A DNA stretch of 61,715 nucleotides, counting the filler, from Thermodesulfobacteriota bacterium (lineage in GTDB: Bacteria; DASVDK01), in the NCBI GenBank assembly GCA_036381125.1. It is 6 parts of 6 records of this genome, joined end to end, with 100 filler letters (N's around TTAATTAATTAA, not from the genome) between each part and the next. Parts side by side here need not be neighbours in the genome. Positions count along the whole stretch, not along the records: positions 1 to 28,497 come from DASVDK010000242.1; 5 more parts are not named here. One strand, given 5' to 3'. The position numbers and the translations under genes are program-made. Positions 2,085-33,302 of this stretch are shown here, in pieces (position 1 is the first letter of the stretch; every line of letters begins with the position of its first letter). Under the pieces are notes generated by a model. The model ran no database searches. It had not been told where the DNA came from and saw only the letters and a program-made list of their open reading frames with translations.

Positions 2085-2091
2085 GGCGCCG

Positions 2092-2478: not shown

Positions 2479-3014
2479 GCTGTCCACCTCTCGCCGACCG
2501 GGAAGACGCGCGAGGCCTGCGGCCCCTGGCGCCCCTCCTCCACCTCGACCTCCACCGGCTGCCCCTTCGAGAGCGCCTCGAACTCGAGGTCGTGCAGCGC
2601 GTTGCGGTGGAAGTAGACCTCCTCGCCCTCCGGCAGCAGCACGAAGCCGTAGCCGCGCTCGGGGAAGAGCTTGTGGATGATCCCCTGAGGCCTCGGGCCC
2701 GGCGGCTTGCCGAAGCGCCTGAGCCGCTCGGCGTACTCCGCGAGTTCTCGCTCGAGCACCTCGAAGGCGGCGTGCAGGGCGTCGGTCATCTTTTCCCCCA
2801 CCTTGTCCACGCGCAGCGTCCGCCCCGGCATCAGGGCGAGGAGCGCGACCTCGTCGGCCCCCTGGCGGTGGTGCCGGTCGTGCTTGAGCGTCACGTGCAG
2901 CCGGACCATGCGCGGGTAGCGCGTCTCGAGGTCGCGCACCCGCGCGTCGATGAGCGTCCGCCAGCTCTCCTGCAGCGGGATGTCGCGGCACTGGTTCTCG
3001 ATCTCGACGTCCAT
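2475..3014 (-). CDS. HPF/RaiA ribosome-associated protein fused to a C-terminal cold-shock domain
   Basis: Start MDVEIEN; S30AE-like N-terminus (DALHAAFEVLEREL); CSD motifs GYGFV, VYFHRNAL, GRQGPQAS. Confidence 0.85.
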   Translation of the reverse strand: MDVEIENQCRDIPLQESWRTLIDARVRDLETRYPRMVRLHVTLKHDRHHRQGADEVALLALMPGRTLRVDKVGEKMTDALHAAFEVLERELAEYAERLRRFGKPPGPRPQGIIHKLFPERGYGFVLLPEGEEVYFHRNALHDLEFEALSKGQPVEVEVEEGRQGPQASRVFPVGERWTA

Positions 3015-3043
3015 GTCGTCTCCTCTCGATCGCCCGCGGGTGG

Positions 3044-4399: not shown

Positions 4400-4438
4400 G
4401 GTCCTCTTCCTCCTCCTCCTCGGTCGGCACGCCCCGGC

Positions 4439-6214: not shown

Positions 6215-6253
6215 CGACGCGACTCCTCACGCTCGGCCCGGCCGGCCGTGCCC

Positions 6254-6655
6254 CTAGCCGCTCACCCAGGCGCGCAAGAGGTCGGTCTCCGTGAGGATCC
6301 CGACGAGGCGGCCCTCGTCCACGACGGGGAGTGAGCCGACCCGCAGGTCGAGCATGACGCGAGCCGCCTCCTCGACCGGCCGGTCGGGGTCCACGGTGGT
6401 CACCTCGCGCGACATCACGTCGCGTACGGCGAGCCGCGCCATCGCCTGGTCCGCGGCCTGGACGGAGCCGGGTGTGGCGACCTCGGGCCGCGCGAGCGGC
6501 AGGTCGCGGTCGCTGACGATGCCGACCAGGCGCCCCCCCTCGATCACCGGCAGGTGCCGGAAGCCGCCGCGCCGCATCCGCCGGTACGCCTCCGCGACCG
6601 GCATCTCTGGCGTCGCGGTCTCCGGCAGCGGTTGCATCCATTCCCTCACTCGCAT
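6254..6655 (-). CDS. CBS-pair domain protein
   Basis: Start MRVREWM after AGGAG; RHLPVIEGGRLVGIVSDRD and SLPVVDEGRLVGILTETD. Confidence 0.9.
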   Translation of the reverse strand: MRVREWMQPLPETATPEMPVAEAYRRMRRGGFRHLPVIEGGRLVGIVSDRDLPLARPEVATPGSVQAADQAMARLAVRDVMSREVTTVDPDRPVEEAARVMLDLRVGSLPVVDEGRLVGILTETDLLRAWVSG

Positions 6656-6747: not shown

Positions 6748-6763
6748 CGCAACGTGGATGCCA
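6748..6763 (-). promoter_or_regulatory. Sigma-54 -24/-12 promoter of the CBS-nrdJ operon
   Basis: Minus strand TGGCAT-CCACG-TTGCG (GG-N10-GC). Confidence 0.8.
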
Positions 6764-6816
6764 GGGCGTGCCGCGGCCGAACCTGCGCGCCCGCGCGCAT
6801 CTCCCGCCGTCGCGGT

Positions 6817-6852
6817 GAGGCATGACCGCCCCACCTGCGGCCCCCGTGTCCC
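6817..6852. promoter_or_regulatory. Tandem palindromic enhancer (UAS) candidate
   Basis: GAGGCA-TGAC-CGCCCC (6817) and GCGGCC-CCCG-TGTCCC (6837). Confidence 0.6.
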
Positions 6853-6871
6853 GTATGGCCGGCGGCTCGGC

Positions 6872-7810
6872 TCACGTCCGGCTCACCAGATCGCGGACCG
6901 GCTCCCCGCGATGCAGGCGCAGGATCGCCTCGGCGAGGAGCGAGGCGACGCCGACCCGCTCGATCGGCGCGGCGAGGTCGGCCGGCGCCTCGACGCTGTC
7001 GGTGACGACGAGACGGCGGATCGGCAGCGGCGCGAGCCGCTCGGCGGCCCGCCGGGGCAGCACCGCGTGCGTCGCAGCGACGACGATGTCCGGCTCGGCG
7101 CCCGCATCGAGCATCGCATGCGCCCCCGCCTCGATCGTCCCGCCGGTGGAGATCATGTCGTCGACGATGATCGGTCTGCGTCCCCGCACCTCTCCGGTCA
7201 GGCCGCTCGTCACGACGTCCGCCGCGCCGACCCGGGTCTTGTGCACGACGGCCATGGGGAGGTCGAGCAGGCGCGCGAACCGCTCCGCCCGGTGGACCGC
7301 GCCGAGGTCCGGGGAGACCACGACGCCGTTGCCGGCCGCCTCCCGGCCGATCGCCTCGACGAGCCGCGGCACGGCGCTCAGGTGCTCCACCGGAACCGGG
7401 AAGGCGCTCTCGATCGCGGCGGCGTGGAGGTCCAGGGCGACGACCCGGTCGACGCCGGCCGTCCCGATCAGCGACGCGACCATGCGCGCCCCGAGCGGCT
7501 CACCGGGGTGCGTCCGGCGGTCCTGGCGCGCGTAACCGAGGTAGGGCACGACGGCGGTGACGCGGGCCGCTCCGGAGAGCCGGCAGGCGTCGGCCAGGAA
7601 GAGGAGCTCCACCAGCCGCACGTCGGCCGGCGGGCTCGTCGGCTGGACGACGTAGACGTCGGCCCCCCGCACGTGCGCCTCGACCTCGACGTGCAGCTCG
7701 CCATCCGGGAAGCGCTCGATTCGGCAGGCGGCCGGCTCGGTCCCGAGGGCGCGCGCCGTGGCGCGGGCCAGCTCGGGGTGGCCGGGTCCGGCGATCAGGA
7801 CCAGCGTCAT
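6872..7810 (-). CDS. prs: Ribose-phosphate pyrophosphokinase
   Basis: Start MTLVLIAG after GGAGG; FPDGE, PYLGYARQDRR, DLH, VVSPDLG, IVDDMISTGGT. Confidence 0.93.
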   Translation of the reverse strand: MTLVLIAGPGHPELARATARALGTEPAACRIERFPDGELHVEVEAHVRGADVYVVQPTSPPADVRLVELLFLADACRLSGAARVTAVVPYLGYARQDRRTHPGEPLGARMVASLIGTAGVDRVVALDLHAAAIESAFPVPVEHLSAVPRLVEAIGREAAGNGVVVSPDLGAVHRAERFARLLDLPMAVVHKTRVGAADVVTSGLTGEVRGRRPIIVDDMISTGGTIEAGAHAMLDAGAEPDIVVAATHAVLPRRAAERLAPLPIRRLVVTDSVEAPADLAAPIERVGVASLLAEAILRLHRGEPVRDLVSRT

Positions 7811-7837
7811 GGCCACGCCTCCTCGGCGCCTTCCGGT

Positions 7838-7853
7838 CGCAACGTCGGTGCCA
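7838..7853 (-). promoter_or_regulatory. Sigma-54 promoter of prs
   Basis: Minus strand TGGCAC-CGACG-TTGCG, near-consensus. Confidence 0.85.
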
Positions 7854-7905
7854 GGCGGGGCGCATCGTAACCGCGCGTCTTCGCGCCGGCCCCACGCGCC
7901 GGGGT

Positions 7906-7941
7906 GCGGCACGCCCGCCTCGCCCGTCGCCTCGATGTCCC
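7906..7941. promoter_or_regulatory. Tandem palindromic enhancer (UAS) candidate
   Basis: GCGGCA-CGCC-CGCCTC (7906) and GTCGCC-TCGA-TGTCCC (7926). Confidence 0.55.
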
Positions 7942-7953
7942 GATCACCGCGGT

Positions 7954-7969
7954 CGGCACGCCGCTTGCG
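7954..7969 (+). promoter_or_regulatory. Sigma-54 promoter of polX
   Basis: CGGCAC-GCCGC-TTGCG, ending 39 bp before the ATG. Confidence 0.75.
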
Positions 7970-8007
7970 GGTCCTCGAGCCGGGCGACGACGCGCGAGGG
8001 GGGGCGT

Positions 8008-9771
8008 ATGAAGAACCTCGAGGTGGCCCGTCTCTTCGACCTGATGGCCGACCTGCTCGAGCTTTCGGGCGGCAACCGCTTCCGCATCCGGGCCTACCGC
8101 CGGGCCGCGCGCAACATCGAGAGCCTCGCCGAGGACCTCGAGACCGTCGCGGCCGAGGGGCGACTCGACGACATCCCGGGGGTCGGCGAGGACCTTGCCG
8201 GCAAGATCGCCGAGTACCTGGCAACCGGTCGGATCCGGGCCCTCGACGGGCTCCGGGCAGCCGTACCGGCCGGCGTCGCCGACCTCCTCGCCGTGCCGGG
8301 GATCGGTCCGAAGACCGCCATGGTCCTCTACGAGAAGGCGGGGGTCCGCACCATCGATCGCCTGAGGGCGCTGGCGCAGGCGGGCAAGCTGCGGGGCCTG
8401 CCCGGCATCCAGGCGAAGACCGAGGCGAACATCCTCAGGGGGATCGCGATCGTCGAGCAGGGCCGGGCGCGCGTGCCGCTCGGGCGCGCGCTCCTCCTGG
8501 CCGAGGACCTCGTGCGGGCCCTCGAGGCGGTCCGCGGCGTCGACCGGGTCGCCCTGGCCGGCTCGATCCGCCGGGGCAAGGAGACGGTCGGGGACATCGA
8601 CATCCTGGTGACCGCCGCCGACCCGAACGCGGTGATGGCGGCCTTCGTCGACCTCCCGCAGGTCGCCGAGGTGCTCGAGCGGGGCACGACGCGGACCTCG
8701 GTCCGGCACCGCGACGGCATCCAGGTCGACCTGCGGGTCGTGGAGCCGGCGAGCTTCGGCGCCGCGCTCCAGTACTTCACCGGCTCGGCCGGGCACAACA
8801 TCCGCATCCGCGAGATGGCCGGCCGGCTCGGTCTCAAGGTCTCGGAGTACGGCGTCTTCCGGGAGGACTCCGGCCGGCGGGTCGCGGCCGCGACGGAGGA
8901 AGACGTCTACGCGGCCGTCGGCCTGCCGTTCATCCCGCCCGAGCTGCGCGAGGACGCGGGCGAAATCGAGGCGGCGCTGGCGGGGAGGCTGCCGTCGCTG
9001 GTCGAGCCGGACGACATCCGCGGTGACCTGCACTGTCACACGCGCGCCTCGGACGGGCACCACAGCGTCGACGAGCTGGTCGCCGCGGCGGCCGCACGCG
9101 GCTACGCGTACGTGGCCGTCACCGACCACAGCGCGTCGGCCACGATCGCGCACGGGCTCTCCCGGGAGGCGCTGCCCGCCCACCTGGCGAGGATCCGCGC
9201 GGCGGAGGCCGCCCATCCCCGCATCCGCGTGCTCGCCGGGACGGAGTGCGACATCCTGCCCGACGGCCGGATGGACTACCCCGACGAGCAGCTCGCCCGG
9301 TTCGACCTCGTGATCGCGGCCGTGCACAGCCGCCTGCGGCAGTCGAAGGCCGAGATGACGCGTCGCATCTGCCGGGCGCTGGCAAACCCGTACGTGCACG
9401 TCCTGGCCCATCCGACCGGGCGGCTCTTCGGCGAGCGGGCCCCGTACGAGGTCGACCTCGACGCCGTGCTCCGAACGGCGCGCCGCTTCGGCAAGGCGGT
9501 CGAGATCAACTGCTGCCCGCAGCGGCTCGACCTCGACGGCACGCACGCGCGGCGGGCGCGGGACCTCGGCGTGCTCGTCGCGATCGACACCGACACGCAC
9601 GCCCTCGATCAGCTCGGCACGATGCGGCTCGGCGTCACGACGGCGCGGCGAGGCTGGGTCGGCCGGGAGCAGGTCGTCAACGCCTGGCCGCTCGAGCGGC
9701 TCCTCGCCTTCACGCGCGGGCCGCGGGCCGGCGCGGCCGCGCCGGCCCGGCGCGCCGCCGGGCGGCGCTGA
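8008..9771 (+). CDS. polX: DNA polymerase X with PHP domain
   Basis: RIRAYRRAA, HhH motifs IPGVG/VPGIGPK, GDIDIL, VDLR, YFTGS; PHP residues DLHCHT, TDHS, DTDTH. Confidence 0.95.
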   Translation: MKNLEVARLFDLMADLLELSGGNRFRIRAYRRAARNIESLAEDLETVAAEGRLDDIPGVGEDLAGKIAEYLATGRIRALDGLRAAVPAGVADLLAVPGIGPKTAMVLYEKAGVRTIDRLRALAQAGKLRGLPGIQAKTEANILRGIAIVEQGRARVPLGRALLLAEDLVRALEAVRGVDRVALAGSIRRGKETVGDIDILVTAADPNAVMAAFVDLPQVAEVLERGTTRTSVRHRDGIQVDLRVVEPASFGAALQYFTGSAGHNIRIREMAGRLGLKVSEYGVFREDSGRRVAAATEEDVYAAVGLPFIPPELREDAGEIEAALAGRLPSLVEPDDIRGDLHCHTRASDGHHSVDELVAAAAARGYAYVAVTDHSASATIAHGLSREALPAHLARIRAAEAAHPRIRVLAGTECDILPDGRMDYPDEQLARFDLVIAAVHSRLRQSKAEMTRRICRALANPYVHVLAHPTGRLFGERAPYEVDLDAVLRTARRFGKAVEINCCPQRLDLDGTHARRARDLGVLVAIDTDTHALDQLGTMRLGVTTARRGWVGREQVVNAWPLERLLAFTRGPRAGAAAPARRAAGRR

Positions 9772-9779
9772 GCCGCGGA

Positions 9780-12197
9780 TCAGGCCGGTCCCCTGGCCGC
9801 GAAGGCGCGCGCCGCCTCGGCGAAGCCGCGCAGCCGCGCCTCGACGAGCTGGTTCACGCTCCCGTCCGGGAACCGTCCCGCCGCGTCGCGCTCGCCGGCC
9901 GGCCGGCCGAGCAGCAGCGCTATCGCCTCGTCCACGTCCCCCACCGGGTGGATGCGGAACCGGCCCGCCTCGACCGCCTCGACGACGTCGCGCCGGACCA
10001 TGAGGTTCTTGACGTTGCTGCGGGGGATCAGCACCCCCTGCTCCCCCGTGAGGCCGCACTCGCGGCAGACGTCGAAGAAGGCCTCGATCTTCTCGTTCAC
10101 CCCCCCGACCGCCTGCACCTGGCCGTGCTGGTTGATCGAGCCGGTGACGGCGAACGCCTGCGAGACCGGCAGGTCGGCCAGGGCCGAGATCAGCGCGCAG
10201 GCCTCGGCCAGCGAGGCGCTGTCGCCGTCGACGGCGCCGTAGGTCTGCTCGAAGACGAGGCTCGCCGCGAGCGAGAGCGGGGCCTGCGACGCGTACCGGG
10301 CGCCGAGGAAGCCCTCGAGGATCAGGACCCCCTTGGAGTGGATCGGCCCGCCGAGCTCGACCTCGCGCTGGATGTCGACGACCTCCCCCTTGCCCACCCG
10401 CACGCGCGCGGTGATCCGCGCGGGATGCCCGAAGGCGGCGTCGCCGAGCGGGACCACGGAGAGGCCGTTCACCTGTCCGACCGTCGCGCCGGCGGTGTCG
10501 ATGAGGACGGTCCCGCGCCGGATCGACTCGATGACGCGCTCGCGCATGCGGCCCGTACGGCGGCGCTGGGCGTCGATGGCCGCCTGGACGTGCTCGCCCG
10601 TGACGACGGGCGCCGCCGCCGTCTCGGCGTGGAACTCGGCCTCCCTGAGCAGGTCGACGACCGGCCGCATGTGGACCGAGAGCTTCTCGGCGTCCCCCGC
10701 GAGGCGGGCGGCGTGCTCGATGACGCGGACCACGGCGCTCCGGTCGAAGGCGCGCAGGCGCTCGCGGCGGACGAGCGTCGCGATCAGGTTGGCGTAGAGC
10801 GCGTGCGTCTCCGGCCGCCGGTCCAGGCTCTCCTCGAAGTCGGCGACGACCTTGAAGAGCTCGGGGACGTCGGGGTCGACGGCCGCCATCAGATGGTAGA
10901 GGAGCCGTTCCCCGACCAGGATGACCTTCGTCCCGCCGAAGGGGATCGGCTCGGGCTCGAGCGACACGGTCGGCACGACCGCGAGGAGTTCGGCGGGGGG
11001 CTCCATCCGGATCTCCCGGGAGCGGATGGCCCGCTTGAGCGCCTCCCACGCGAACGGCTGCTGCAGGACCTTGCGGGCGTCGAGGATCAGGTACCCGCCG
11101 CTCGCCCGGTGGAGCGCGCCCGGCTTGATCAGGGTGACATCGGTGAGCAGGGCCCCGAACTGGGCGACGTGCTCGATGCGGCCGACGAGGTTCGTGTAGG
11201 TCGGGTGGTCCTCGTGGACGATCGGCGCGCCCCGCGTGGCGCCGTTGTCGACGAGGACGTTGACCGCGTAGCGCCGCGCCGCGGCGCCGTCCCTCTGGTT
11301 GCGGCGGAACGCCTGGGCGAGCATCGCCTCGAGCCCCATCGGCCCCGCCTCGAGGAACTCGTCGGCGCGGTCGATGACGTCGCGTTCGACCTCGTCGAGG
11401 TACTCGAGGACGGCCGGCAGGTCCCGATAGCGGGCGCGCACGCCGTCGAGCACGCGGCGGGCGACCGAGGTCGACGTCTCCCGGTCGAGCCCCTTCATCG
11501 CCTCGTGCTGCTCGTGCCCCCACTCGTGGAGCCGCTGGAAGAACGCCTGCACGTCGGAGCCGACCCGCTCCATCTCGGCCTGCATCCGCGCCTGCTCCGG
11601 CCTGGAGAGCTGCGCCAGGTCGGCAGGCCTGAGCGGGGCGCCGTCGCGCAGGGGGGCCACGACGAGGCCCCCCTCGGTTCGCACCACCGCGACCCCCCGC
11701 TGCCTCGCCCGCTCCTGCACCTCCGCGAAGGCCTGCGCCTGGCGCTCGTTGAACCGGGCGATCAGCTCCTGCTTGCGCGTGCGGTACTCCTCGCTGTCGA
11801 ACGCGGCACGCATGGCGTCGCGGATGTCGGCCACGGCCTGCTGCATGTCGTCGCGCAGCCGCGAGCCGCGCCCCGGAGGGAGCGAGAGGACGCGGGGCCG
11901 ATGGGCGTCGGCGAAGTTGTGGACGTAGCAGCGGTCCGGCGGCGCCGCCTCGCCCGCCGCTCGCGGCCCGAGGATCTCGCGCAGGAGCGTCTCCTTGCCG
12001 ACGCCGGGCGGGCCCATCGCGAAGAGGTTGTAGCCGTCGTGCCGGATGGTCAGCCCGAACCGGACCGCCTCGACGGCGCGCTCCTGGCCCACCATCCCGG
12101 TGGTCCCGACGGCCTCGTCCGTCGTCGCGAAGGGGATGTCGTCCGGCTCACACCGCCGGTACAGGTCGGCGGCCGACAGGGTGGACGCGGCACGCAT
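9780..12197 (-). CDS. Lon-like (LonC/AAA_32) ATP-dependent S16 protease
   Basis: GQERA, GPPGVGKE, PGALHRASGGYL, GQVNGLSV, catalytic DGDSAS and NEKIEAF. Confidence 0.9.
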   Translation of the reverse strand: MRAASTLSAADLYRRCEPDDIPFATTDEAVGTTGMVGQERAVEAVRFGLTIRHDGYNLFAMGPPGVGKETLLREILGPRAAGEAAPPDRCYVHNFADAHRPRVLSLPPGRGSRLRDDMQQAVADIRDAMRAAFDSEEYRTRKQELIARFNERQAQAFAEVQERARQRGVAVVRTEGGLVVAPLRDGAPLRPADLAQLSRPEQARMQAEMERVGSDVQAFFQRLHEWGHEQHEAMKGLDRETSTSVARRVLDGVRARYRDLPAVLEYLDEVERDVIDRADEFLEAGPMGLEAMLAQAFRRNQRDGAAARRYAVNVLVDNGATRGAPIVHEDHPTYTNLVGRIEHVAQFGALLTDVTLIKPGALHRASGGYLILDARKVLQQPFAWEALKRAIRSREIRMEPPAELLAVVPTVSLEPEPIPFGGTKVILVGERLLYHLMAAVDPDVPELFKVVADFEESLDRRPETHALYANLIATLVRRERLRAFDRSAVVRVIEHAARLAGDAEKLSVHMRPVVDLLREAEFHAETAAAPVVTGEHVQAAIDAQRRRTGRMRERVIESIRRGTVLIDTAGATVGQVNGLSVVPLGDAAFGHPARITARVRVGKGEVVDIQREVELGGPIHSKGVLILEGFLGARYASQAPLSLAASLVFEQTYGAVDGDSASLAEACALISALADLPVSQAFAVTGSINQHGQVQAVGGVNEKIEAFFDVCRECGLTGEQGVLIPRSNVKNLMVRRDVVEAVEAGRFRIHPVGDVDEAIALLLGRPAGERDAAGRFPDGSVNQLVEARLRGFAEAARAFAARGPA

Positions 12198-12327
12198 GGT
12201 CCCCTACGCCTCGCCCCGCTCGATACCCTGGATGGAGACGCCGACGATTCGACGCACCTGTCGATCCCCCGTGCGGTCTGCTCCGGCACCCGGCCGGTCG
12301 GGCCGCGACCGCGGCGGCCGTGAGACA

Positions 12328-12343
12328 TGCAAGCCGGGCGCCA
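12328..12343 (-). promoter_or_regulatory. Sigma-54 promoter of the Lon-like protease
   Basis: Minus strand TGGCGC-CCGGC-TTGCA. Confidence 0.78.
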
Positions 12344-12398
12344 GCGACCGAGCGCCGTGCCGGCCGTCCCGGTCCCCGAGGCCGCGCGGCCGCCTCGC

Positions 12399-12434
12399 GT
12401 GGCGCGCCTGTCCCATCCGTGGCGGCGCCGCCCC
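12399..12434. promoter_or_regulatory. Tandem palindromic enhancer (UAS) candidate
   Basis: GTGGCG-CGCC-TGTCCC (12399) and GTGGCG-GCGC-CGCCCC (12419). Confidence 0.6.
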
Positions 12435-12487
12435 ACCGGCCGCGCCCCGAGCCCGCCGCAGGTCGCCGGACTTGCGCCGGATCGTCG

Positions 12488-12503
12488 TGGCAGCGGGCTT
12501 GCA
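12488..12503 (+). promoter_or_regulatory. Sigma-54 promoter of the VIT1 gene
   Basis: TGGCAG-CGGGC-TTGCA upstream of a GAGGAGG RBS. Confidence 0.8.
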
Positions 12504-12527
12504 TCGGGAGACGAGAGGAGGACCGCC

Positions 12528-13061
12528 GTGAACGACCCGCACGAGCCCCCGCTCGGGGGCGACCTGGTTCGGCACTACCTGGGGGACCTGATCTACGGGG
12601 CCAACGACGGCATCGTCACGACCTTCGCCGTCGTCTCGGGCGTGGAGGGGGGCTCCCTCGACGCCCGCGTGGTCCTCGTCCTCGGGGTGGCCAATCTCCT
12701 GGCCGACGGCGTCTCCATGGGGGCCAGCAACTTCCTCGCCATCCGGTCGGCGGAGGCGGGCCGGGCCGCCTCGGGTCTCGAGCAGGTCGAGCCGTACCCG
12801 AACCGGCACGCCATCGCCACCTTCCTCGCGTTCGTGCTCGCGGGGGCCGTGCCGCTCGTCCCCTACGTCGTCGTCCCGCCGGACCGGCGGTTCCTCACGG
12901 CGATCGTCGCGACGCTCCTCACGCTCTTCGTCGTCGGCGCGCTCCGCTCGTTCGTGACGGCGCTGCGCTTCTGGCGGGCCGGCGCGGAGATGCTCGTCGT
13001 GGGGGCCGCGGCCGCCGCGATCGCCTACGGCGTGGGGGCGCTCGTCGCCGGGCTCGTCTGA
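12528..13061 (+). CDS. VIT1/CCC1 family Fe/Mn transporter
   Basis: GTG start; IYGANDGIVTTFAVVSGV, ANLLADGVSMGASNFL. Confidence 0.9.
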   Translation: MNDPHEPPLGGDLVRHYLGDLIYGANDGIVTTFAVVSGVEGGSLDARVVLVLGVANLLADGVSMGASNFLAIRSAEAGRAASGLEQVEPYPNRHAIATFLAFVLAGAVPLVPYVVVPPDRRFLTAIVATLLTLFVVGALRSFVTALRFWRAGAEMLVVGAAAAAIAYGVGALVAGLV

Positions 13062-13078
13062 GGACCGGCGCCGCGCCG

Positions 13079-13960
13079 TCACTCCGGCTCACGCGACGCC
13101 TCGAAACCCGAGACGAGGTCGAGCAGCTCCGCGGTGATCGTGTCCTGGCGGACGCGGCGCGACTCGGCCGTGAGCGCCTCGAGGCGCTCCTCGATGTTGC
13201 GCTCGGCCGCCTGCATCGCCGAGAGCCGGGCGGCGTGCTCGGCTGCGAGCGACTCGGCCGCCGCGCGGAAGATGCTCACGAAGAGGTGCTGGCGCACGAG
13301 CGCGGCCAGGAGCCGATCGGCGTCCATGGTGTAGGTCGGACGCGTCCTGGACGGCCACGGCTCGCCGGCGAGCCGCTGGAAGCGCCGCAGGTCGACCGGC
13401 AGGAGCGGCGCCAGGTGCGGCGACGCCGCGCCGCCGCGGCCGCGCCGGTTGTGGACCAGGAGGACGCGGGACACCCCTCGCCCCTGCCAGGCCTCGACCG
13501 CGAGGAGGATCTCGTCCACGAGCGCCGAGAGGCCGGCCGCAGTGCCGGGCAGCACGAGCCGGCGCTCGATCCGCTCACCGAACCCCTCGAGTCGTGCCGC
13601 GGCCCGCGCTCCGGCGGCGAGCCAGGCGCGCGCCTCGCGCGGCACGCCGAGTCGCTCCACGGAGGCGCGGGCGAACGCCGCGACGGCGTCGTTGAAGCCC
13701 CCGCAGAGGCCGTGGTCGGAGCCGAAGACGACGGCGCCGGTCGCCCCCGTCTCGCGGCGAGTCGGCTCCGGCCGGGACGGCCGGTCGCGCAGGACCACCC
13801 GGAGCCCCAGTTCGACCGCCCTCGCGTACGACGCGAGCGCGTCGGCCGCCTGGTCGTACTGCCGCACGCTGACGGCCGAGAGCGACTTCATCGTGCGGAC
13901 GATCGACCGGAGGCTCTCGGTCGTGTCGATCCGGCGGCGCAGCGCCTCAAGCGTCGCCAT
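13079..13960 (-). CDS. atpG: N-ATPase gamma subunit
   Basis: [49 protein letters not shown]. Confidence 0.92.
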
Positions 13961-15512
13961 GACCGCCGCGCGCCCCCCCGGCCGGCAGGATCTCGCGCAC
14001 CGCCGCCCGTGCCAGCTCGAGGAGCCGGTGGCGCGCCTCGTCCCCGAGCCGCTCGCCCCGCTCGATCGCCTCGACGACGTCGCCCGCCTGGTCGCCGAGC
14101 CGCCGGCGGATCGCCGCCTCCGCCGCGGCGACCCGCTCCGGCTCGATCGCGTCGAAGACCCCCTGGCCCGCCGCGAACAGGACCGCGACCTGGTCGGCCA
14201 CGGGGAGCGGCCGGTACTGCGGCTGCTTGAGGACCTCGCGGACCCGCCGCCCACGCTCGAGGTCGCGGCGGGTCCGCTCGTCGAGCCTCGTGCCGAAGCG
14301 GGAGAAGGCCTCGAGCTCCTCGAACTGGGCGTAGGCGAGCCTGAGCGGCCCGGCCACCGCGCGGAAGGCGGGGAGCTGCGCCCGGCCCCCCACGCGCGAC
14401 ACCGACCGGCCGACGTCGACGGCGGGCAGGAGCCCCTTGCGGAAGAGGTCGGGCGACAGGTAGACCTGACCGTCGGTGATCGAGATCAGGTTGGTCGGGA
14501 TGTACGCGGAGAGGTTCTGCGCCTGGGTCTCGACGATCGGCAGGGCGGTGAGCGAGCCGCCCCCGCGCGACTCGCGCAGGCGGGTTGCCCGCTCGAGGAG
14601 CCTCGCGTGGACGTAGAAGATGTCCCCCGGGTACGCTTCGCGCCCCGGCGGGCGGCGCAGCAGGAGGGACAGCTCGCGGTAGGCGCGGGCGTGACGCGTC
14701 AGGTCGTCGTAGACGACCAGCACGTCGCGGCCCCGCGCGACGAAGTACTCCGCCATCGACGTCGCCGCGTACGGCGCGAGGAACTTGAGCCCCGGCGGCT
14801 CCTCCCCGCCGGCCACGACGACGATGGAGTGGTCCATCGCCCCGTGCGCGCGCAGCGCCGCGATCACGCCGGCGACGGCCGATCCCCGCTGGCCGATGGC
14901 GCAGTAGACGGAGACGACGCCGCGGCCGCGCTGGTTGGTGATCGTGTCGACGGCGATGGCGGTCTTCCCCGTCTGGCGGTCCCCCAGGACGAGCTGGCGC
15001 TGACCGCGGCCGATCGGGACGAGGGCGTCGATCGCCTTGATGCCGGTCTCCAGGGGAACGCTCACCGGCGCGCGGTCGAGGATGTCGGGCGCGCCGCGCT
15101 CGGTCGGCCACCGCTCCGCCGCCCGGATCGGGCCGCCGCCGTCGAGCGGCCGGCCGAGCGGGTCGACGACGCGGCCGACGAGCGCCGGACCGACCGGCAC
15201 GTCGACGACCCTGCCGGTGCGGCGGACCGAGGAGCCGGCCGCGGGGGTCGGCGCCGAGCCGAGGAGGACGACCCCCACGCCCCCCGGCTCCAGGTTGGAG
15301 GCCAGGCCGAGGAGGCCCCCCTCGAAGCGGACGACCTCGTCCGCCCGGACGCCGGCGAGGCCCTCCACCTGGGCGGTCGCCCCGGTGACCTGGACGACGG
15401 TCCCGCTCTCCTCCACGCGGAGACCGTCCACCTGGTCGTCGAGGGCGCGCGAGACGAGGCCGAAGGTCTCGCGGGCGAGGTCGGTCAGGCTCGACGGCAC
15501 GTCGCGGCTCAT
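13947..15512 (-). CDS. atpA: N-ATPase alpha subunit
   Basis: [37 protein letters not shown]. Confidence 0.95.
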
Positions 15513-16297
15513 GTCAGCCGGACCGCCTCGGCCTCCGCGGGCGGCTCCGCGAGGAGGCCGGCGAGCCGCTGCTCGAGGTCGTCGAGGTAGCCGTCGATGC
15601 TCCAGGTGAGCGTGCGCCCCCCGGCGATCGCCTCGATGCCGCAGGTCACCTGGTCGGTCGTCTCGTACGCGATCTCGAGGCCGCCGCCGAGCGTCTCGTG
15701 CACGGCCGCCGTGATCGTCCGCCGGGCGCTCGCGGGCAGGGGGAAGGCGCTGCGCACGCGGACCGGCCCGCCGGCGGCGCGGGCCTCGGCCGCGACGGCA
15801 TCGGCCGTCTCGGCCGGCAGCCGGCGCACCTGCTCGGCGAAGACCGAGGCCATCTGCTCCTCGAGGGCCGCGTCGGCGAGGTGGGCGAGCGCGCGGCGGG
15901 CCATCTCGAGGAAGTGTCGGGCCGCCTGGCGCCTGAACTCCTGGAGGAACGCCGCCCGCTCCTCCTCGAGCTGGGCCCGCCAGCGGGCGCGGGTCTCCTC
16001 GACCTCCCGCCTGAGGTCGGCCTCGAGCTGGCGGCCGAGCCGCTCCGCCGCGGCCCTCGCCTCGTCCATCAACCGGGTCCGCGCCGCCTCGAGCGCCTCG
16101 AGCGCCTCCTCGTGGCGGCGGGCCGCCCTCTCCGCCGCCCGCCCCTTCGCCTCGGCCTCCGCGAGCCTGGCGGCGACCTCGGCCTCGCGGCGCTTCATGG
16201 CCCGCACGATCGGCCCGTAGAGGAACCGCGCGAGCAGCCAGACGAGGACGAGGAAGTTGACGATCTGGGCGAGGACGGTGACCCAGTCGACGCGCAT
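15509..16297 (-). CDS. atpF: N-ATPase b subunit (long form, no separate delta)
   Basis: [19 protein letters not shown] membrane anchor, coiled coil, C-terminal CGIE..GG..WSIDGYL. Confidence 0.9.
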
Positions 16298-16300
16298 CCG

Positions 16301-16579
16301 CTACCCCGAGACCTGGGCGGCCACCCGGTTCCAGAAGGGATTGGCGAAGATGAGGATCAGCGACACGACGAGGGAGTAGATCCCCGACGACTCGACGATC
16401 GCCAGGCTCACGAAGAGCGTGCGCGAGATCGTGTTGGCCTCGTCGGGCTGCTGGGCGATGGCCGCGAGCCCCTGCGCGGCCGCCCGTCCCTCGCCGAGCG
16501 CGGCGCCGAAGCTGCCGACGGCGACCGTGATCCCGGCCGTGATGATGGAGACCATGCCGATCAGACCGAGGTCGTTCAT
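16301..16579 (-). CDS. atpE: N-ATPase c subunit
   Basis: 92 aa; [27 protein letters not shown]. Confidence 0.93.
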
Positions 16580-17277
16580 GGAGTCCTCCCGTCGCGATCC
16601 GCGTGAGCCTTGCCCGGATGGGCGCGCGTTGCCGCGGCAATGTACACCATCGCCAGGACCGCGAAGATGTACGCCTGGATGAGCCCCGTCAGGAGACCGA
16701 AGAGCTGCATGACGATCGGAAAGAAGAACGGGGCGATGCCGATGAGGATGGCCACGATCATCGTGCCGCTCATCATGTTGCCGTAGAGCCGCACGGCGAG
16801 CGCCACGGTCCTCGAGATCTCGCCCATGACGTTGATCGGCAGCATGAGCGGCGTCGGGTGCAGGTAGGTCCGCAGATACCGGAGAACCCCCTGCCGGGCC
16901 ACGCCGAAGAGCGGCACCGCGACGAGCACGCAGAGGGCGAGCGCCACGGTGGTCGACAGCGAGGCCGTCGGCGGGACGAACCCGGGCACGACACCGAGGA
17001 TGCTGCTGGTCGCGATGAAGAGGAACAGCGTCCCGACGAACGGCAGGTACGGCCCCGGCTCCTGCTGGCTCACCTCGCGGATCTGGGCGCGGATCGCGAG
17101 CACGATCACCTCGAGCAGGTTCTGCCACCGCGTGAGCCGCGTCGAGGCGGACAGCCGGCGCGTGACCAGGCACGAGACCCCCGTGAGGAGCCCCATGACG
17201 AGCCAGGTGTAGGCGATCGTCGCGTTGACCTCGTACGCGCCCCATCGCCAGACGACGACCGCGTCGGTGTTCGGCAT
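16576..17277 (-). CDS. atpB: N-ATPase a subunit
   Basis: [39 protein letters not shown]. Confidence 0.93.
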
Positions 17278-17600
17278 CAGGAACGGCCCTCGTCCCGGAC
17301 GAGCCGGCCCGACGGCCGGCGCGGTCCGCCGAGCCCGCGGCGCGCCGCCCCGACGGCTGCGGTCCTCACGGCGAGGAGCCCCGCCATCGCCGCCGCGAGC
17401 CGCTCCCACCGGCCGTCCATGACCAGGAGGATGCCGATCGCGAGGACCGCGAACCGAACGGCGGCGCCGGCGACGAGCCAGCGCGCCGGCGCGGCCACCC
17501 GGTGGAGGCGGCGCACCAGGAGCCAGAGCCCGCCGAAGTGGACCGCGCCGAGCGCGATGCCGGCGAGGAACGGGAGGACGAGGTCTCGTGCGTCAGTCAT
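17277..17600 (-). CDS. atpR: N-ATPase-specific subunit AtpR
   Basis: LGAVHFGGLWLLVRR, membrane Arg residues; lies between atpQ and atpB. Confidence 0.85.
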   Translation of the reverse strand: MTDARDLVLPFLAGIALGAVHFGGLWLLVRRLHRVAAPARWLVAGAAVRFAVLAIGILLVMDGRWERLAAAMAGLLAVRTAAVGAARRGLGGPRRPSGRLVRDEGRS

Positions 17601-17876
17601 CGCGACTCTCCCGCGTCACCCAGTACCAGGCGTTCAGGCACCCCAGGGCGACGCCGCCGAGAAGGCCCGCCAGGGTCCAGGAGATCGGCCCCGGGAACCG
17701 GCGGTCGAGCCAGACGCCGAGGGCGATGCCGACGAGCGTCGGCACCGCGACCGACCAGCCGACGAGGCCGAACATGCCGAGGCCGAACCAGACCCCCCTG
17801 CGGCCGGCGAGGCGGGCCCGGCGCTTGCGCCTCGCCTTGCGGCCGATCGTCTCGGGCACCGAGGGCCGCCGCCGCG

Positions 17877-17880
<4 letters not shown>
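17593..17880 (-). CDS. atpQ: N-ATPase AtpQ (AtpZ/AtpI family)
   Basis: GTG start; WFGLGMFGLVGWSVAVPT, GVWLD, GCLNAWYW. Confidence 0.85.
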
Positions 17881-23381
<5,501 letters not shown>

Positions 23382-23385
<4 letters not shown>

Positions 23386-24266
23386 ACCCGTTTCCGTCGA
23401 TCCTGGTGCCGCTCGACGGCTCGAGCACCGCGGCGCGGAGCCTCGGGTGCGCGACCTGGCTCGCCCGGCGCCTCGGCTCCCGGCTGCACGTCCTCAACGC
23501 GGGCCCCGATCCGCTGCCGGCCCGCGAGGCGCTCACGCGCCTCAAGGTCCCGGAAGCGGCGTGGCCGCTCGTCGTGCTGCACCAGGCGCCGGCCTGCCCG
23601 GCCGACGCCGTCCTCGAGGCGGTCGCCCAGTACGAGGTCCAGCTCGTCGTGATGACGGCGCGGGGCAAGACGGCCGAGGCGCAGGCGGCGGGCGACACGA
23701 CCCGCCTCGTCGGGCACGTGACGCACGCCGTCCTCGAGCGAAGCCCGGTGCCGGTGCTGCTGCTGCCGCCGGCCTACCGCGAGGAGCTGCCGTGGACGCG
23801 CGTCCTCGTCCCGGTCAGCGGCGAGGCCGAGGCGGACGCCGCGCTGACCCTCGCGGTCCGGCTCGCCAGGGCGCTCGACCTCGGGGTCCACGTCGTGCAC
23901 GTGATCCCGCCGGGCGACGGCGACGCCGACCTCGCCGCCAGGGCGCGCTACGCGGACGCCCTCCACCACGAGTACCCGCGCCAGCTCGAGGAGGTCGTCA
24001 GCCGCGCCCTCGCCGACTGCACCCCGGGGGAGCGCTGCCGCGTCGAGGACGTGGCGCTCGGCTACGGCGAGGTCGACACCGAGCTGCTCGCCCTGATCGA
24101 GCGCAAGCGGGTGAGCCTGCTCGTGATCGGCTGGCACGGGTGTCTCGCGAGCGGCCGCGCTCCGGTGCTCAGGCGCCTGATCGAGTCGGTCGCCTCCCCG
24201 CTCCTGCTGGTCAAGCCGGCCGAGCCGCAGCCGTTCCGGCTCAAGGTCGGCGAGGAGATCGAGTAA
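23382..24266 (+). CDS. Tandem-domain universal stress protein
   Basis: ILVPLDGS, VVMTARG, GHVTHAVLERSPVPVLL, second VLVPVSG domain; ATGA overlap with the upstream gene. Confidence 0.85.
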
Positions 24267-24275
24267 CGGGCGCCC

Positions 24276-25751
24276 TCAGAGGTCGAGGCCGAGCGCCGGG
24301 CCCGCGACGAAGTAGCCGACCAGCGACACCAGCACGATCCCGAGCAGGTTCAGCCAGAACCCGGCGCGGACCATCTGCCCGAGTCGCACGTAGCCCGACC
24401 CGAACACCATCGCGTTCGGCGGCGTCGCCACCGGGAGCATGAACGCGAGGCTCGCCGCGAGCGTCGCCGGGACCAGGAGCAGCGTCGGGTCGAGCCCCAG
24501 CGCCGTCGAGACCCCCGCCCCGCCGAGCACCGGCATCAACGTGTTCGCCACCGCCGTGTTGCTCGTCAGCTCGGTCAGGAAGATCACCCCGGTCGCGACC
24601 GCCGCCACCACGAGAAAGGGGTGCGCGCCGCGGAGCGACTCGAAGCCGCCGCCGATGAAGCGGTCCACGCCGCCTCCCTGGATCGCCGCGGCGAGGCTGA
24701 GCCCGCCCCCGAAGAGGACGAGGATCCCCCAGGGGAGCTTCGACGCCGTCTCCCAGTCCATGGCGAACGTCCGGGTCCGGACGTCGACGGGGATCAGGAA
24801 GAGGGCGCCGGCCGCGATGACGGCGATCCCCTCGTCGGTGAGCCCGGTGAGTCCGGTCAGCGCCGCGATCTGCGGCCTCGCGACCCACGCGAGCGCCGTC
24901 AGCGCGAAGACGACGGCCACGACCCGCTCGCCGCGGCTCATCGGCCCGAGCCGGCTGAGCTCGTCCCGGATCATCTGCCGCCCGCCCGGGACGCGGCCGA
25001 GCCGCACGGGGAACGCCACGGCGGTCAGGTACAGCCACGCGAGCGGCAGGAACGCCGCGACGAGCGGCAGGCCCACCGCGAGCCACGCCGTGAAGCCGAT
25101 CTCCTGCCCGTAGACGCGCTGGACGTACCCCTTGAGGACGACGTTCGGGGGCGTCCCGATCAGGGTGCCCACGCCGCCGATGCTCGCGGCGTAGGCGATC
25201 CCGAGCACGAGCGCGGCAGCGAAGTCGGCCCCCGGCCGCCCCGCCCCCTCCTCCGCTCGCGCGCGCACCAGGCGGATCACGCTCACGCCGATCGGCAGCA
25301 TGATGGCGACCGTGGCGGTGTTGGAGACCCACATGCTCATCGCCGCCGAGGCGAGCATGAAGCCGGCGACGAGCCCGCGCGGCCCGGTGCCGACCATCAG
25401 GACGGTCGCGAGCGCGATCCGCCGGCTGAGTCCCCAGCGCTCCATGCCGAGGCCGAGGACGAAACCGCCCATGAAGAGGAAGATCACCGGGTCGGCATAC
25501 GGCTCGGCCGCCTCGCGGATCGTCCGGGCGCCGAGGAGCGGCAGGCACGCGATCGGGACCAGCGCCGTGGCGGCGAGCGGCACCGCCTCGGTGAGCCACC
25601 AGACGGCCATCAGCACGCCGACGCCCGCGATGACGCGCCCCTCGTGGGTCAGGCCCCGGCCCCCCTCCGCCGCCTCGGGGGCCAGGAGGTACACGACCAG
25701 CCCGAGCACCGGGCCGGCCGCGAGCCCCGCCCACTGGACGCCGACCTGCAC
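24276..25751 (-). CDS. DASS/SLC13 anion:sodium symporter
   Basis: WWLTEAVP, SMWVSNTAT, GTLIGTPPN, TELTSNT, FMLPVATPPNA; true start may be slightly upstream. Confidence 0.92.
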   Translation of the reverse strand: MQVGVQWAGLAAGPVLGLVVYLLAPEAAEGGRGLTHEGRVIAGVGVLMAVWWLTEAVPLAATALVPIACLPLLGARTIREAAEPYADPVIFLFMGGFVLGLGMERWGLSRRIALATVLMVGTGPRGLVAGFMLASAAMSMWVSNTATVAIMLPIGVSVIRLVRARAEEGAGRPGADFAAALVLGIAYAASIGGVGTLIGTPPNVVLKGYVQRVYGQEIGFTAWLAVGLPLVAAFLPLAWLYLTAVAFPVRLGRVPGGRQMIRDELSRLGPMSRGERVVAVVFALTALAWVARPQIAALTGLTGLTDEGIAVIAAGALFLIPVDVRTRTFAMDWETASKLPWGILVLFGGGLSLAAAIQGGGVDRFIGGGFESLRGAHPFLVVAAVATGVIFLTELTSNTAVANTLMPVLGGAGVSTALGLDPTLLLVPATLAASLAFMLPVATPPNAMVFGSGYVRLGQMVRAGFWLNLLGIVLVSLVGYFVAGPALGLDL

Positions 25752-25801
25752 CCGGCTGGCCGGCTGCGGCTCCGGCGCGCCGGGGAGGTCGCCTGCCGCG
25801 T

Positions 25802-26113
25802 TCAGCGCTGGCCGAGCCGCCCGAGCGTGCTGTCGAGCGCGCGCTCGAGCTTACGCGTGGCGCCGTCGATCGCCTGCCGCATCGTCTCGGCCTGGTCGCT
25901 CGCCGCGACCGGATCGAGCCCGGCGAGGCGCGCCTCCAGGACGCAGCGCTTGTCCTCTCCCGACTTGAGGCTGTTCACGTCGCTCAGGTGGACCTCCAGG
26001 CGCGTGATGCGATCGGCGAAGCGGTCGAGCGCCTCCCGCATCATCACCTCGACCTCGCGGGCCAGGCTCTCGCCCCCCTGGATCTTGCCATCGGTGTTGA
26101 CCTGAACGTGCAC
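25802..26113 (-). CDS. HPF/RaiA family ribosome-associated protein
   Basis: GTG start after GGAGGA; QVNTD, RITRLEVHLSD, DKRCVLEARLAG. Confidence 0.85.
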   Translation of the reverse strand: MHVQVNTDGKIQGGESLAREVEVMMREALDRFADRITRLEVHLSDVNSLKSGEDKRCVLEARLAGLDPVAASDQAETMRQAIDGATRKLERALDSTLGRLGQR

Positions 26114-26251
26114 GGGTGTCCTCCTCCGGGTCGTCGCTTCCTCTGGTACCGCGCGGCGTCGAGCTCGTCCACGGCGCCGACGGCTCGCCACGGCGCGGGC
26201 GAGCGGCCGCTCGCGTGCAGCCGCGAGCGACCGGTCTCACGGCGGGCTCGT

Positions 26252-26267
26252 GGCATATTCGGTGCCG
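26252..26267 (-). promoter_or_regulatory. Probable sigma-54 promoter of hpf-DASS
   Basis: Minus strand CGGCAC-CGAAT-ATGCC (GG-N10-GC, weak -12). Confidence 0.5.
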
Positions 26268-26329
26268 GGCGCCGACGCCCCGCAAGGGCTCGAAATCGCT
26301 CGCGCGCGCTCCCCAGGCCCCACGGTGCC

Positions 26330-26366
26330 GGGACCTCGGTGCCCCGGTGCGGGACCCGAAAGCCCC
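26330..26366. promoter_or_regulatory. Tandem palindromic enhancer (UAS) candidate
   Basis: GGGACC-TCGG-TGCCCC (26330) and GGGACC-CGAA-AGCCCC (26351). Confidence 0.6.
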
Positions 26367-26594
26367 ACCCCGCCGCCCGGTCGGCACCCACGGCAGCGCC
26401 CGGCGTGCAGGCAGGCCCCGGCCGGGCCGGCGACCCCGCCCGGGGCGGTCCACCGGGCGCCGTGTCGGCGAGCGTCGTCACTTCCCGCAACTTGCGGCAG
26501 CCTGTAGGGTAGGCCGACCGGGCCGGCAAGGCGGGAACTCGGATAAGTCTGCGGAACATCCCCGCTTTTGTGGCACGATGCCGGAGGGGCGTAC

Positions 26595-26610
26595 CGGCTC
26601 GTGTCTTGCT
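26595..26610 (+). promoter_or_regulatory. Probable sigma-54 promoter of the HTH gene
   Basis: CGGCTC-GTGTC-TTGCT. Confidence 0.55.
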
Positions 26611-26665: not shown

Positions 26666-27058
26666 ATGGCGCGTCGACGCCGAAGCCCGCCCGCCCTGCT
26701 CACGCTCCACGACGCCGCCGCCGCGGTCGGCCTGAGCGTCCCGACCCTTCGGCGGCACATCCGATCGGGCCGGCTCCGGGCGGAGCGCATCCGGGGAAAG
26801 TACGGTCCCGAGTACCGCGTCGACGCGCGCGCGCTCGCCGTTCTCGGCCTCCCGGTCACGCTGCCGCCGCGTCGTTCACCCGCCATCGCTCCGCCCCGGC
26901 GGCATGCCGGCGTCGAGTCCGACGCGCTGGCGAGGCTGCTCGCCGAGCTTGGCGCACTGCGTCAGGAGCTGCGCGACCTCCGCAGGGCGCTCGCCGAACT
27001 CACCGCCAGGCTCCCCGGCGCAGAGCCGGGTCGATCCGGTCGCGCGCGACGACGGTAG
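26666..27058 (+). CDS. Excisionase/MerR-like HTH protein with C-terminal coiled coil
   Basis: AGGAG RBS; LTLHDAAAAVGLSVPTLRRHIRSGRLRA; heptad LAELGALRQELRDLRRALAEL. Confidence 0.75.
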   Translation: MARRRRSPPALLTLHDAAAAVGLSVPTLRRHIRSGRLRAERIRGKYGPEYRVDARALAVLGLPVTLPPRRSPAIAPPRRHAGVESDALARLLAELGALRQELRDLRRALAELTARLPGAEPGRSGRARRR

Positions 27059-27433
27059 CGCTCGCCCTTCCGGGAGACGGGGGGTTCGCCCCGCCTCGGG
27101 ACTTCGGTTCCCTCTTGTCAGCGGCGAGCGGCTCGATATAGAGTAGTTGCATGGCCAATCCGTGGTCACCCCTGCGCACCTCTGATCATGCCCGGCGGCT
27201 TCGAAACCCCGCTCCACGACGTGATCGGAGCGAAGGCCGCCTTCGGGAAGGCACGGTCGCACCGACGTAGACCGTTCGCCCGGCACGCGCGGTCACGCGA
27301 ACGCTCCTTGCGCGTTCGCCCGAACGTCGAGCCCGTCAGAGCCGCTCCGGTGAGCCGGAGGCGCCCCCTTCCCCGTGCGCCGTCACGTGCCTGGCAGGCT
27401 GACGCTCCCGTCGTCGAGAGGAGGACCTGGTCA

Positions 27434-33202: not shown

Positions 33203-33302
33203 NNNNNNNNNNNNNNNNNNNNNNNNNNNNNNNNNNNNNNNNNNNNTTAATTAATTAANNNNNNNNNNNNNNNNNNNNNNNNNNNNNNNNNNNNNNNNNN
33301 NN
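33203..33302. other. Artificial contig linker
   Basis: N-run with TTAATTAATTAA. Confidence 0.98.

Follow-up and report, generated by a model that had tools for sequence, protein, structure and literature searches.

The closest described systems are three low-oxygen regulons and a family of haem-based sensors, against which we compare a 61,715-nt stretch of a Thermodesulfobacteriota genome (GCA_036381125.1), hereafter the window. The window consists of six contigs joined by N spacers, and the contig of interest, C242 (window positions 1-28497), carries nine sigma-54-type promoter boxes; from its layout and that of a related genome we infer that C242 forms one end of a large stress/dormancy island with its own two-component pair, encoded on contig C57. 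The source genome (G000) comprises 4.33 Mb in 382 contigs at 73% GC and is 96% complete. In the NmpRSTU system of Myxococcus xanthus (PMC11841059), an NtrC-type activator acts from tandem palindromic enhancers on sigma-54 promoters, as we propose here. NmpRSTU also combines a haem sensor kinase with autoregulation and hypoxic induction, all three of which would have counterparts in the present system, and the targets of both include genes for CBS proteins, universal stress proteins (USPs) and P-type ATPases. The differences lie in site, sensor and size. The NmpR site reads GCGCA-N5-TGCGC with 14-15 bp between sites, whereas the element found here is an 18-bp palindrome, YGGGRCR-N4-YGYCCCR, repeated in tandem with a period of 19-24 bp (1-6 bp between sites); NmpU is a protoglobin kinase that acts in a relay, whereas here a multi-PAS/GAF kinase is encoded next to the activator; and the NmpR regulon holds 7 promoters (PMC11841059) versus a predicted total of about 20. 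No protoglobin (PF11563) was found in the 96% complete genome, and in five C242 control regions the best matches to GCGCA-N5-TGCGC reach 7-8 of 10 positions with no perfect site. Identity with NmpRSTU was rejected on these two counts, and on balance we lean towards a low-oxygen regulon that would work like that of NmpR with a different sensor and a different site.

DosR of Mycobacterium tuberculosis is a NarL-type regulator that works with GAF-haem kinases and is not known to use sigma-54. It is served by two similar kinases, DosS and DosT, as there are two kinases here (on C57 and C361); its box places GGGAC and GTCCC 4 bp apart, whereas the equivalent halves here lie 6 bp apart; and the CBS protein Rv2626c reportedly belongs to its regulon. 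Further likenesses of the DosR/DevR regulon to ours are USPs, nrdZ next to a phosphoribosyltransferase gene (Rv0570/Rv0571c), an otsB1-like GH65 enzyme, a CtpF-like ATPase, a nitroreductase (Acg) and alpha-crystallin (PMC7753917, which also gives variants of the DosR box). In the C242 regions the DosR box with its 4-bp centre matches at 7-9 of 10 positions and the 6-bp form, which has the enriched spacer, at 8-10 of 10. The regulator encoded in the island is NtrC-type, in place of a NarL-type one with a GAF-haem kinase. The lxa locus of Burkholderia cenocepacia (PMC3721108) is likewise a clustered low-oxygen island with USPs, alpha-crystallin, a nitroreductase, a ribonucleotide reductase and a cation ATPase, and repeats one motif at many intergenic points and at outlying loci; that motif, TGA-N6-TCA of the Anr/Fnr type, is nowhere matched in full in the five control regions of C242. 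As the element common to these regions, boxes of the NmpR, FNR, lxa, CRP and DosR types were all set aside, since none of them outperforms the 6-bp-centred palindrome there.

Sigma-54 promoters on C242 and across the genome

A sequence-only reading of the window had described the nine boxes on C242, each facing the adjacent gene, as four divergent pairs plus one. All nine 16-mers are present at those coordinates, on those strands and in that orientation, and the arrangement is as described. With a matrix iterated on 177 sites from contigs other than C242, seven boxes score 13.1-14.3 bits (chance 0.002-0.004 per 200 nt). These are 6748-6763 (-, 14.2 bits), at the head of the CBS - nrdJ/Z - phosphoribosyltransferase/hydrolase - HPF/cold-shock - DUF2267 - CapA unit; 7838-7853 (-, 13.7 bits), before prs; 7954-7969 (+, 14.3 bits), before polX; 12328-12343 (-, 13.5 bits), before the LonB-like protease gene; 12488-12503 (+, 13.1 bits), before a VIT1-family gene; 20164-20179 (-, 13.4 bits), before usp and the N-ATPase operon; and 26595-26610 (+, 14.1 bits), before an HTH_17 gene. 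The box at 20340-20355 (+), before HAD-GH65 and usp, is moderate (9.6 bits, chance 0.026 per 200 nt), and that at 26252-26267 (-), before the HPF-like and DASS transporter genes, is weak (5.5 bits, chance 0.15 per 200 nt) and within chance when taken alone; it is credible because of its phased enhancer only. Eight of the nine boxes therefore stand above the intergenic null, and of the two that had been called weak only 26252 is so. Transcription would be expected to start ∼12 nt past the GC, near 6737, 7827, 7980, 12317, 12514, 20153, 20366, 26241 and 26621.

The boxes could in principle be chance matches in DNA of 74% GC. This is favoured by the score of box 26252 and by the simple pattern YGGC-N7-TTGC, which matches 15 times in the window, 8 times outside the set of nine; most of the extra matches listed in the matrix scan lie in coding sequence. 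The 15 matches, 7 of the nine boxes among them, compare with 4.1 ± 2.0 in 100 shuffles (maximum 10). Genome-wide, TGGC-N7-TTGC occurs upstream of a gene and in the correct orientation at 46 sites versus 13, 3, 7 and 6 for spacers of N5, N6, N8 and N9, TGGCA-N6-TTGC lies outside coding sequence at 29 of 31 sites, and 186 of 3204 upstream regions score at least 11.5 bits versus 21-26 in three shuffles. A same-genus sister genome (G001, ∼93% identical to G000) covers seven of the nine boxes, with those at 12328 and 12488 falling outside its assembly coverage. Five boxes are identical (16/16 at 6748, 7838, 7954 and 20164, and 26595 within a poorly conserved stretch), 20340 carries one change (15/16, core kept) and 26252 three (13/16, GG and TGC kept). 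In total 108 of 112 box bases are kept, compared with 819 of 988 in the rest of those intergenic regions (Fisher p 2e-5). Taken with the spacer control, the shuffles and the orientation, this cross-genome conservation and the phased enhancers described below leave chance the least credible account of all, and we regard the boxes as sigma-54 promoters with high confidence.

The rpoN gene is intact in the genome, and the sigma-54 interpretation of the sequence-only reading is supported; its further suggestion, that the signal is specific to the island, proved wrong. Such specificity would confine sigma-54 control to the island, as though it had been brought into a sigma-70 genome from outside, and two observations agree with it: C242 has the most boxes of any contig, at 2.1 per 10 kb versus 0.42 genome-wide (∼5-fold), and near-consensus TTGACA-type promoters do occur on the other contigs of the window, as had been noted (e.g. 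before 32616, 34384, 36224, 57868 and 61297). Against this, the 186 high-scoring regions correspond to 184 distinct boxes on 119 of the 382 contigs, some short contigs being denser than C242; enhancer-linked promoters occur on at least 11 contigs besides C242; and the GC content is close to that of the genome. An import of this kind is accordingly very improbable, and sigma-54 boxes in a row are nothing unusual for this genome. Nor is C242 itself free of sigma-70-like signals. The assignment of one box to each transcription unit holds for nine of the ten units that start on C242; the tenth, a PAS-GAF-HisKA kinase gene from 27434 to the end of the contig, follows a sigma-70-like promoter at 27115-27142 (+), both hexamer regions of which are nearly kept in the sister genome and which marks the edge of the island. 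What is distinctive here is the shared enhancer and the activator/sensor pair, not the sigma factor.

Sigma-54 boxes also precede genes that read, from their N-termini and not from a family scan, as dnaK, clpB, hsp20 and pilins. Strong boxes at C346:3270, C130:10772 and C185:559 (N-termini read as dnaK, clpB and hsp20) have no tandem enhancer, and a separate sigma-54 heat-shock regulon lacking this element is likely. Chaperone genes, and in Planctomycetia USPs, are listed in predicted sigma-54 regulons (PMC12316311). Back-to-back boxes ∼23-33 bp apart were seen at C144:2263-2325 and C49:1349-1401, the latter pair with no enhancer of the tandem 18-bp type within 320 nt upstream, and a gene in the window that reads as ftsH (36589-38430, -) has a borderline box of 10.6 bits at position 1916 of contig C246.

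The tandem palindrome and its predicted activator

Tandem copies of the palindrome lie upstream of eight of the nine C242 boxes, all eight within 160 nt and seven at the usual distance, mostly with site starts at -90/-70 from the first base of the box. Usual enhancer distances are described in PMC4641369, the available main text of which contains no GGGAC string. The pair at 6816-6853 (6816-6833 and 6836-6853) stands at -90/-70 from box 6763 and is kept in the sister genome with changes toward the consensus. A weak pair at 7905-7942 (7905-7922 and 7925-7942) stands at -89/-69 from box 7853, and the pair at 12398-12435 (12398-12415 and 12418-12435) is common to both boxes of its divergent pair (-92/-72 and -90/-70). 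Three sites at 20230-20290 (20230-20247, 20249-20266 and 20273-20290) are common to the divergent pair 20164/20340, and the pair at 26329-26367 (26329-26346 and 26350-26367) stands at -100/-79 from box 26267 and at -266/-245 from box 26595. Across the sister genome 152 of 162 enhancer bases are kept, as are all 54 of 54 in the core.

Several counts tie the palindrome to sigma-54 promoters. GGGACA/TGTCCC is found, at a nearly fixed distance, in 9 of 17 island upstream regions versus 12 of 164 other sigma-54 promoters. A matrix seeded with nine sites from hand-picked promoters off C242 recovers tandem sites at eight of the nine C242 boxes, including the weak 26252 (-100/-79), and genome-wide yields 20 tandem matches of at least 16 bits, 18 of them intergenic and 17 adjoining a sigma-54 box. 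The N4 spacer gives 16 intergenic matches to the palindrome, other spacers 1-5. The 19 proximal enhancer-box distances fall into four groups, 59-61, 67-72, 79-81 and 87-94 nt (Rayleigh p 2e-4 for a 10.5-bp period), with two outliers (29 and 149) left out and with distances that are not independent, seeds and shared sites being included.

The regulator predicted to bind these sites, P0001 (C57:4720-6111), is of the NtrC type, with the receiver Asp, an AAA+ domain with GAFTGA and Walker A/B motifs, and a Fis-type helix-turn-helix (HTH). Its recognition helix, DRKTIHRL, occurs in this activator alone among the G000 activators, of which the genome encodes 19 with near-full domains (26 PF00158 matches, none on C242); the helix of an activator on C16 is similar. 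P0001 stays below the cut-off of every named NCBIfam equivalog, an ESM Atlas search with the activator returned generic AAA-lid/Fis clusters only, and no paper on this activator or its site was found in a literature search that left subscription papers mostly outside. DRKTIHR[LM] is common to 109 of 110 protein homologues, the NCBI labels of which (protein matches only) include Thermodesulfobacteriota (the sister-genome protein), Ca. Methylomirabilis and many Longimicrobium, the cultured L. terrae among them. Searches with the C-terminal 67 aa gave no match in 41 genomes at E<=1e-12, nor in two samples of 251 genomes at E<=1e-11 with at most 24 candidates scored per genome; both were run with no positive control and are uninformative on absence.

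A metagenome scan with the last 143 aa of P0001 provided a link between helix and site. In the best 80 of 238 confirmed loci, which are kin, many of them short, and which show regulon content in their flanks only, 55 have a DRKT[FILV][HY]R helix, and the tandem site is present at 19 of these versus 0 of the 25 others (two near-variants and one unparsed locus among the latter), and five column-shuffled matrices gave 0. A sigma-54 box lies just behind the regulator gene at 35 of the 55 DRKT-helix loci, and USP and CBS genes follow in many of the activator loci. A palindrome search from random starts in 32 non-redundant metagenomic promoters converged on the same 18-mer at -91/-71. With the motif so derived, eight of the nine C242 promoters rank among the first 22 of 262; the two that flank 20230-20290 rank 1 and 2, and 26595 ranks 213. 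The reverse test gave 26 of the 32 metagenomic promoters versus 0-1 in 20 shuffles. The motif carries over to other organisms.

The palindrome might instead be bound by another activator, or by a Crp/Fnr or NarL-type co-regulator, at what would still be sigma-54 promoters. The genome offers candidates in its ∼19 full activators, the C16 protein with its similar helix among them, and in 10 Crp-type and 8 LuxR-type domains; in addition, four metagenomic loci (L229, L235, L239 and L241) encode activators with the helix IDRRTLHRKL, behind which come a sigma-54 box and a palindrome of related sequence, apparently 1 bp shorter when judged by eye; they form a natural test case for helix-to-site specificity. 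However, the motif tracks the DRKT-x-HR helix and lies directly behind that gene in other organisms, its phasing relative to the box is what a looping activator would require, the FNR-type boxes at seven places in the genome include none on C242, and no LuxR-type domain is encoded on the island contigs. Another binder is therefore improbable, and the palindrome is probably the enhancer of the C57 activator. Beside the LonB-like homologues of other phyla the enhancer was found at 0 of 79 loci (L003-L081), which implies that the LonB-like gene travels without this control. A further gene in the window, 33302-34384 (-), encodes a receiver and a partial sigma-54 interaction domain with no GAFTGA match, is truncated at the contig end and sits behind a near-consensus sigma-70 promoter.

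The sensor kinase and the proposed low-oxygen circuit

The kinase gene C57:1757-4723 adjoins the activator gene and encodes four PAS domains and a GAF domain. For the two central PAS domains (PAS2 and PAS3), 13 of 14 PDB matches are haem-PAS entries of the FixL or DosP type, including a yddU entry, which we take to be DosP under its older name. Both domains align with rhizobial FixL and Escherichia coli DosP, and His420 and His549 align with the proximal His of these proteins; the proximal His is also kept in the kinases of 11 of the best 80 metagenomic loci. In contrast to FixL/FixJ and DosP, the kinase carries two haem-type PAS domains in tandem and its partner is a sigma-54 activator, not FixJ. 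No other PAS domain in the genome matched at E<=1e-8. Among its paralogues the kinase is nearest to that on C361, at 57% across the DHp domain; the C361 kinase is itself enhancer-controlled and has no FixL-like PAS. The order and strand of the genes place regulator and kinase behind promoter C49:740, which bears an enhancer, and this implies autoregulation.

FixL is active as a kinase without O2. As in FixL, haem in the PAS domains would keep the C57 kinase off while O2 is bound, and a fall in O2 would lead it to phosphorylate the C57 activator. Two activator dimers would then occupy the tandem sites at ∼-90/-70 relative to the -24 element, form an oligomer and loop to sigma-54 RNA polymerase to open the promoter, a single enhancer serving both promoters of a divergent pair. 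With the activator and kinase genes behind such a promoter, the circuit would include positive feedback, and the C361 kinase may feed the same activator. The predicted output is a low-oxygen survival programme of USPs, CBS proteins, HPF, Hsp20, GroEL2 and a B12-dependent ribonucleotide reductase, together with salvage of phosphoribosyl pyrophosphate and nicotinamide adenine dinucleotide, a trehalose-type GH65 enzyme and the N-ATPase; elsewhere in the genome it would extend to clade II nosZ, AhbC-like radical SAM genes, Acg, an alcohol dehydrogenase (ADH) and a carbamate-kinase operon.

These genes are most simply linked by low O2, which, judging from the PAS domains and the gene set, is likely to be the signal; genes of the haem-copper oxidase family, NarG and NosZ are present in the genome. 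The same wiring might alternatively answer NO, CO, redox or energy state as a general growth-arrest regulon, which we consider less probable yet deserving of weight. It is favoured by the breadth of the kinase, with its four PAS domains and GAF domain, by the lack of a FixL-like PAS in the second kinase, C361, by the presence of nosZ, chaperone, protease and DNA repair genes in the regulon, and by the precedent of DosR, which responds to NO and CO as well as to hypoxia (PMC3721108). On the other side, two PAS domains match O2 sensors best with the proximal His kept across lineages, and demonstrated low-oxygen regulons likewise contain class II ribonucleotide reductase, USPs, CBS proteins, a P-type ATPase and Acg. 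The one RNA run considered shared 0.05 of words with the genome and yielded short contigs of a relative that are uninformative on starts, expression or habitat.

Several observations weigh against a low-oxygen regulon built around the C57 pair. Of the 17 island promoters, six have no tandem enhancer in the normal position within 160 nt: 26595, C144:938, C49:1363 and C49:1387 have no near site, and the site is downstream at C144:2277 and at -168 for C144:2311. In addition to these six, the polX box 7954 has it unusually close, at -49/-29. Visual inspection of C242 first revealed the motif, and seed promoters were chosen by hand, so that the recovery by the off-C242 matrix, the genome-wide tandem counts and the phasing are not fully independent; the metagenomic loci, as stated, are kin and many are short. 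IHF-like sites between enhancer and box, a frequent though dispensable feature of sigma-54 promoters, are weak on C242 (4-7 of 9 matching positions), compared with clear sites in the 32 metagenomic promoters (6-9 of 9); the genome has four IHF/HU genes. Haem binding rests on one conserved His, with the FixL distal Arg not clearly aligned in a poorly aligned region, and the link between C242 and C57 rests on a contig of the sister genome and not on the G000 assembly. Finally, PolX, LonB, the LigD domain and the cyanuric-acid operon would also fit a general stress or nitrogen role.

The proposed low-oxygen regulon, the mechanism of which is already known from NmpR, gives an uncultured lineage a complete predicted dormancy circuit (sensor, activator, operator and about 20 promoters). 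More tentatively, an unnamed family of DRKT-x-HR sigma-54 activators could, with FixL-type kinases and the 18-bp tandem enhancer, constitute a low-oxygen master switch in several uncultured Gram-negative phyla, a functional DosR, which here would place the N-ATPase, clade II nosZ and ATP-yielding cyanuric-acid breakdown under one oxygen signal. If so, the N-ATPase would gain a role in hypoxic survival and clade II nosZ a sigma-54 control route. The predicted circuit makes it testable when N-type ATPases are expressed and what turns on a clade II nitrous oxide reductase, and it hints that three different regulators (DosR, Anr/Fnr and a sigma-54 activator) have come to govern one survival gene set.

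Predicted regulon content and neighbouring features

Genes were called with a custom hexamer model, and families on C242 were assigned from Pfam and NCBIfam profiles. The N-ATPase operon, atpD-C-Q-R-B-E-F-A-G (13079-19669, -; alternate-F1F0 TIGR models, PF12966), is complete, with seven of nine subunit models over cut-off and those for gamma and c just under. The first gene of the unit encodes a USP (19666-20127, -; PF00582). As in the N-ATPase operons described in PMC5376962, atpD and atpC stand in front, atpQ/atpR are present and a regular F-ATPase is encoded beside it in the genome (with a second atpD on C359); unlike those, the operon here follows a USP gene and is preceded by a sigma-54 box together with the strongest of the enhancers. 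The c subunit carries two carboxylates as well as an ES-S-x-x-Y stretch; in another N-ATPase the coupling ion was mispredicted from sequence, and the cellular functions of these enzymes are called largely unexplored (PMC5376962). No report of sigma-54 control of an N-ATPase was found within the same literature search.

The remaining enhancer-linked units of C242 are as follows. The unit at 1095-6655 (-) runs from a CBS pair (6254-6655) through class II ribonucleotide reductase NrdJ/Z (4439-6214), a phosphoribosyltransferase-hydrolase (3044-4399), an HPF and cold-shock fusion (2475-3014) and DUF2267 (2092-2487) to CapA (1095-2084). Next come prs, encoding ribose-phosphate diphosphokinase (6872-7810, -; TIGR01251), PolX with a PHP domain (8008-9771, +; NF006375), the LonB-like AAA protease (9780-12197, -; PF13654, PF05362) and the VIT1-family membrane protein (12528-13061, +; PF01988). 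On the far side of the N-ATPase unit, an OtsB1-like HAD-GH65 fusion (20425-23385, +) is followed by a tandem USP (23382-24266, +), and an HPF/S30AE gene (25802-26113, -) by a DASS transporter gene (24276-25751, -). Two HPF/S30AE genes thus lie under sigma-54 boxes on C242, whereas the hpf-like gene after rpoN (C266:25391-25567; L001:2045-2221) encodes 59 aa only and looks degenerate. The HTH_17 gene (26666-27058, +; 130 aa, PF12728 28.5 bits), missed by the gene model, is conserved in the sister genome. Its box, 26595, has no nearby enhancer and may belong to another activator; just upstream, an inverted repeat GGCA-N3-TGCC (26568-26582), fully conserved amid divergence, is a possible operator for the HTH_17 protein.

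Contig C72 of the sister genome extends ∼22 kb to the left of window position 1 and matches G000 contigs C144, C197, C49, C57 and C363, which carry the same boxes. The extension encodes a USP, nicotinate phosphoribosyltransferase (NAPRTase), GroEL, fructose bisphosphate (FBP) aldolase/phosphatase, archease, RtcB, an ABC exporter, CBS proteins and many USPs, as well as an NtrC-type regulator, a multi-PAS/GAF kinase, DksA/TraR and Hsp20. Among the outlying targets are Sec-type nosZ, AhbC-like and TIGR04053 radical SAM genes, Acg with a P-type ATPase, USP-ADH and the atzD/carbamate-kinase operon. The last, a cyanuric-acid operon, has a strong sigma-54 box and the same tandem enhancer at -89 (C381:6821-6858; L151), an arrangement consistent with anaerobic operation that yields ATP. 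An enhancer and a sigma-54 box precede the nosZ operon of clade II (Sec-type) at C355:4598-4724 (L149); on the same contig an FNR-like box (C355:2445) precedes other genes. At the left end of the window, between LigD-PE and CapA (1055-1097), a short intergenic repeat with more than 20 matching places in the sister genome is a candidate repetitive extragenic palindromic (REP)-like element or terminator.

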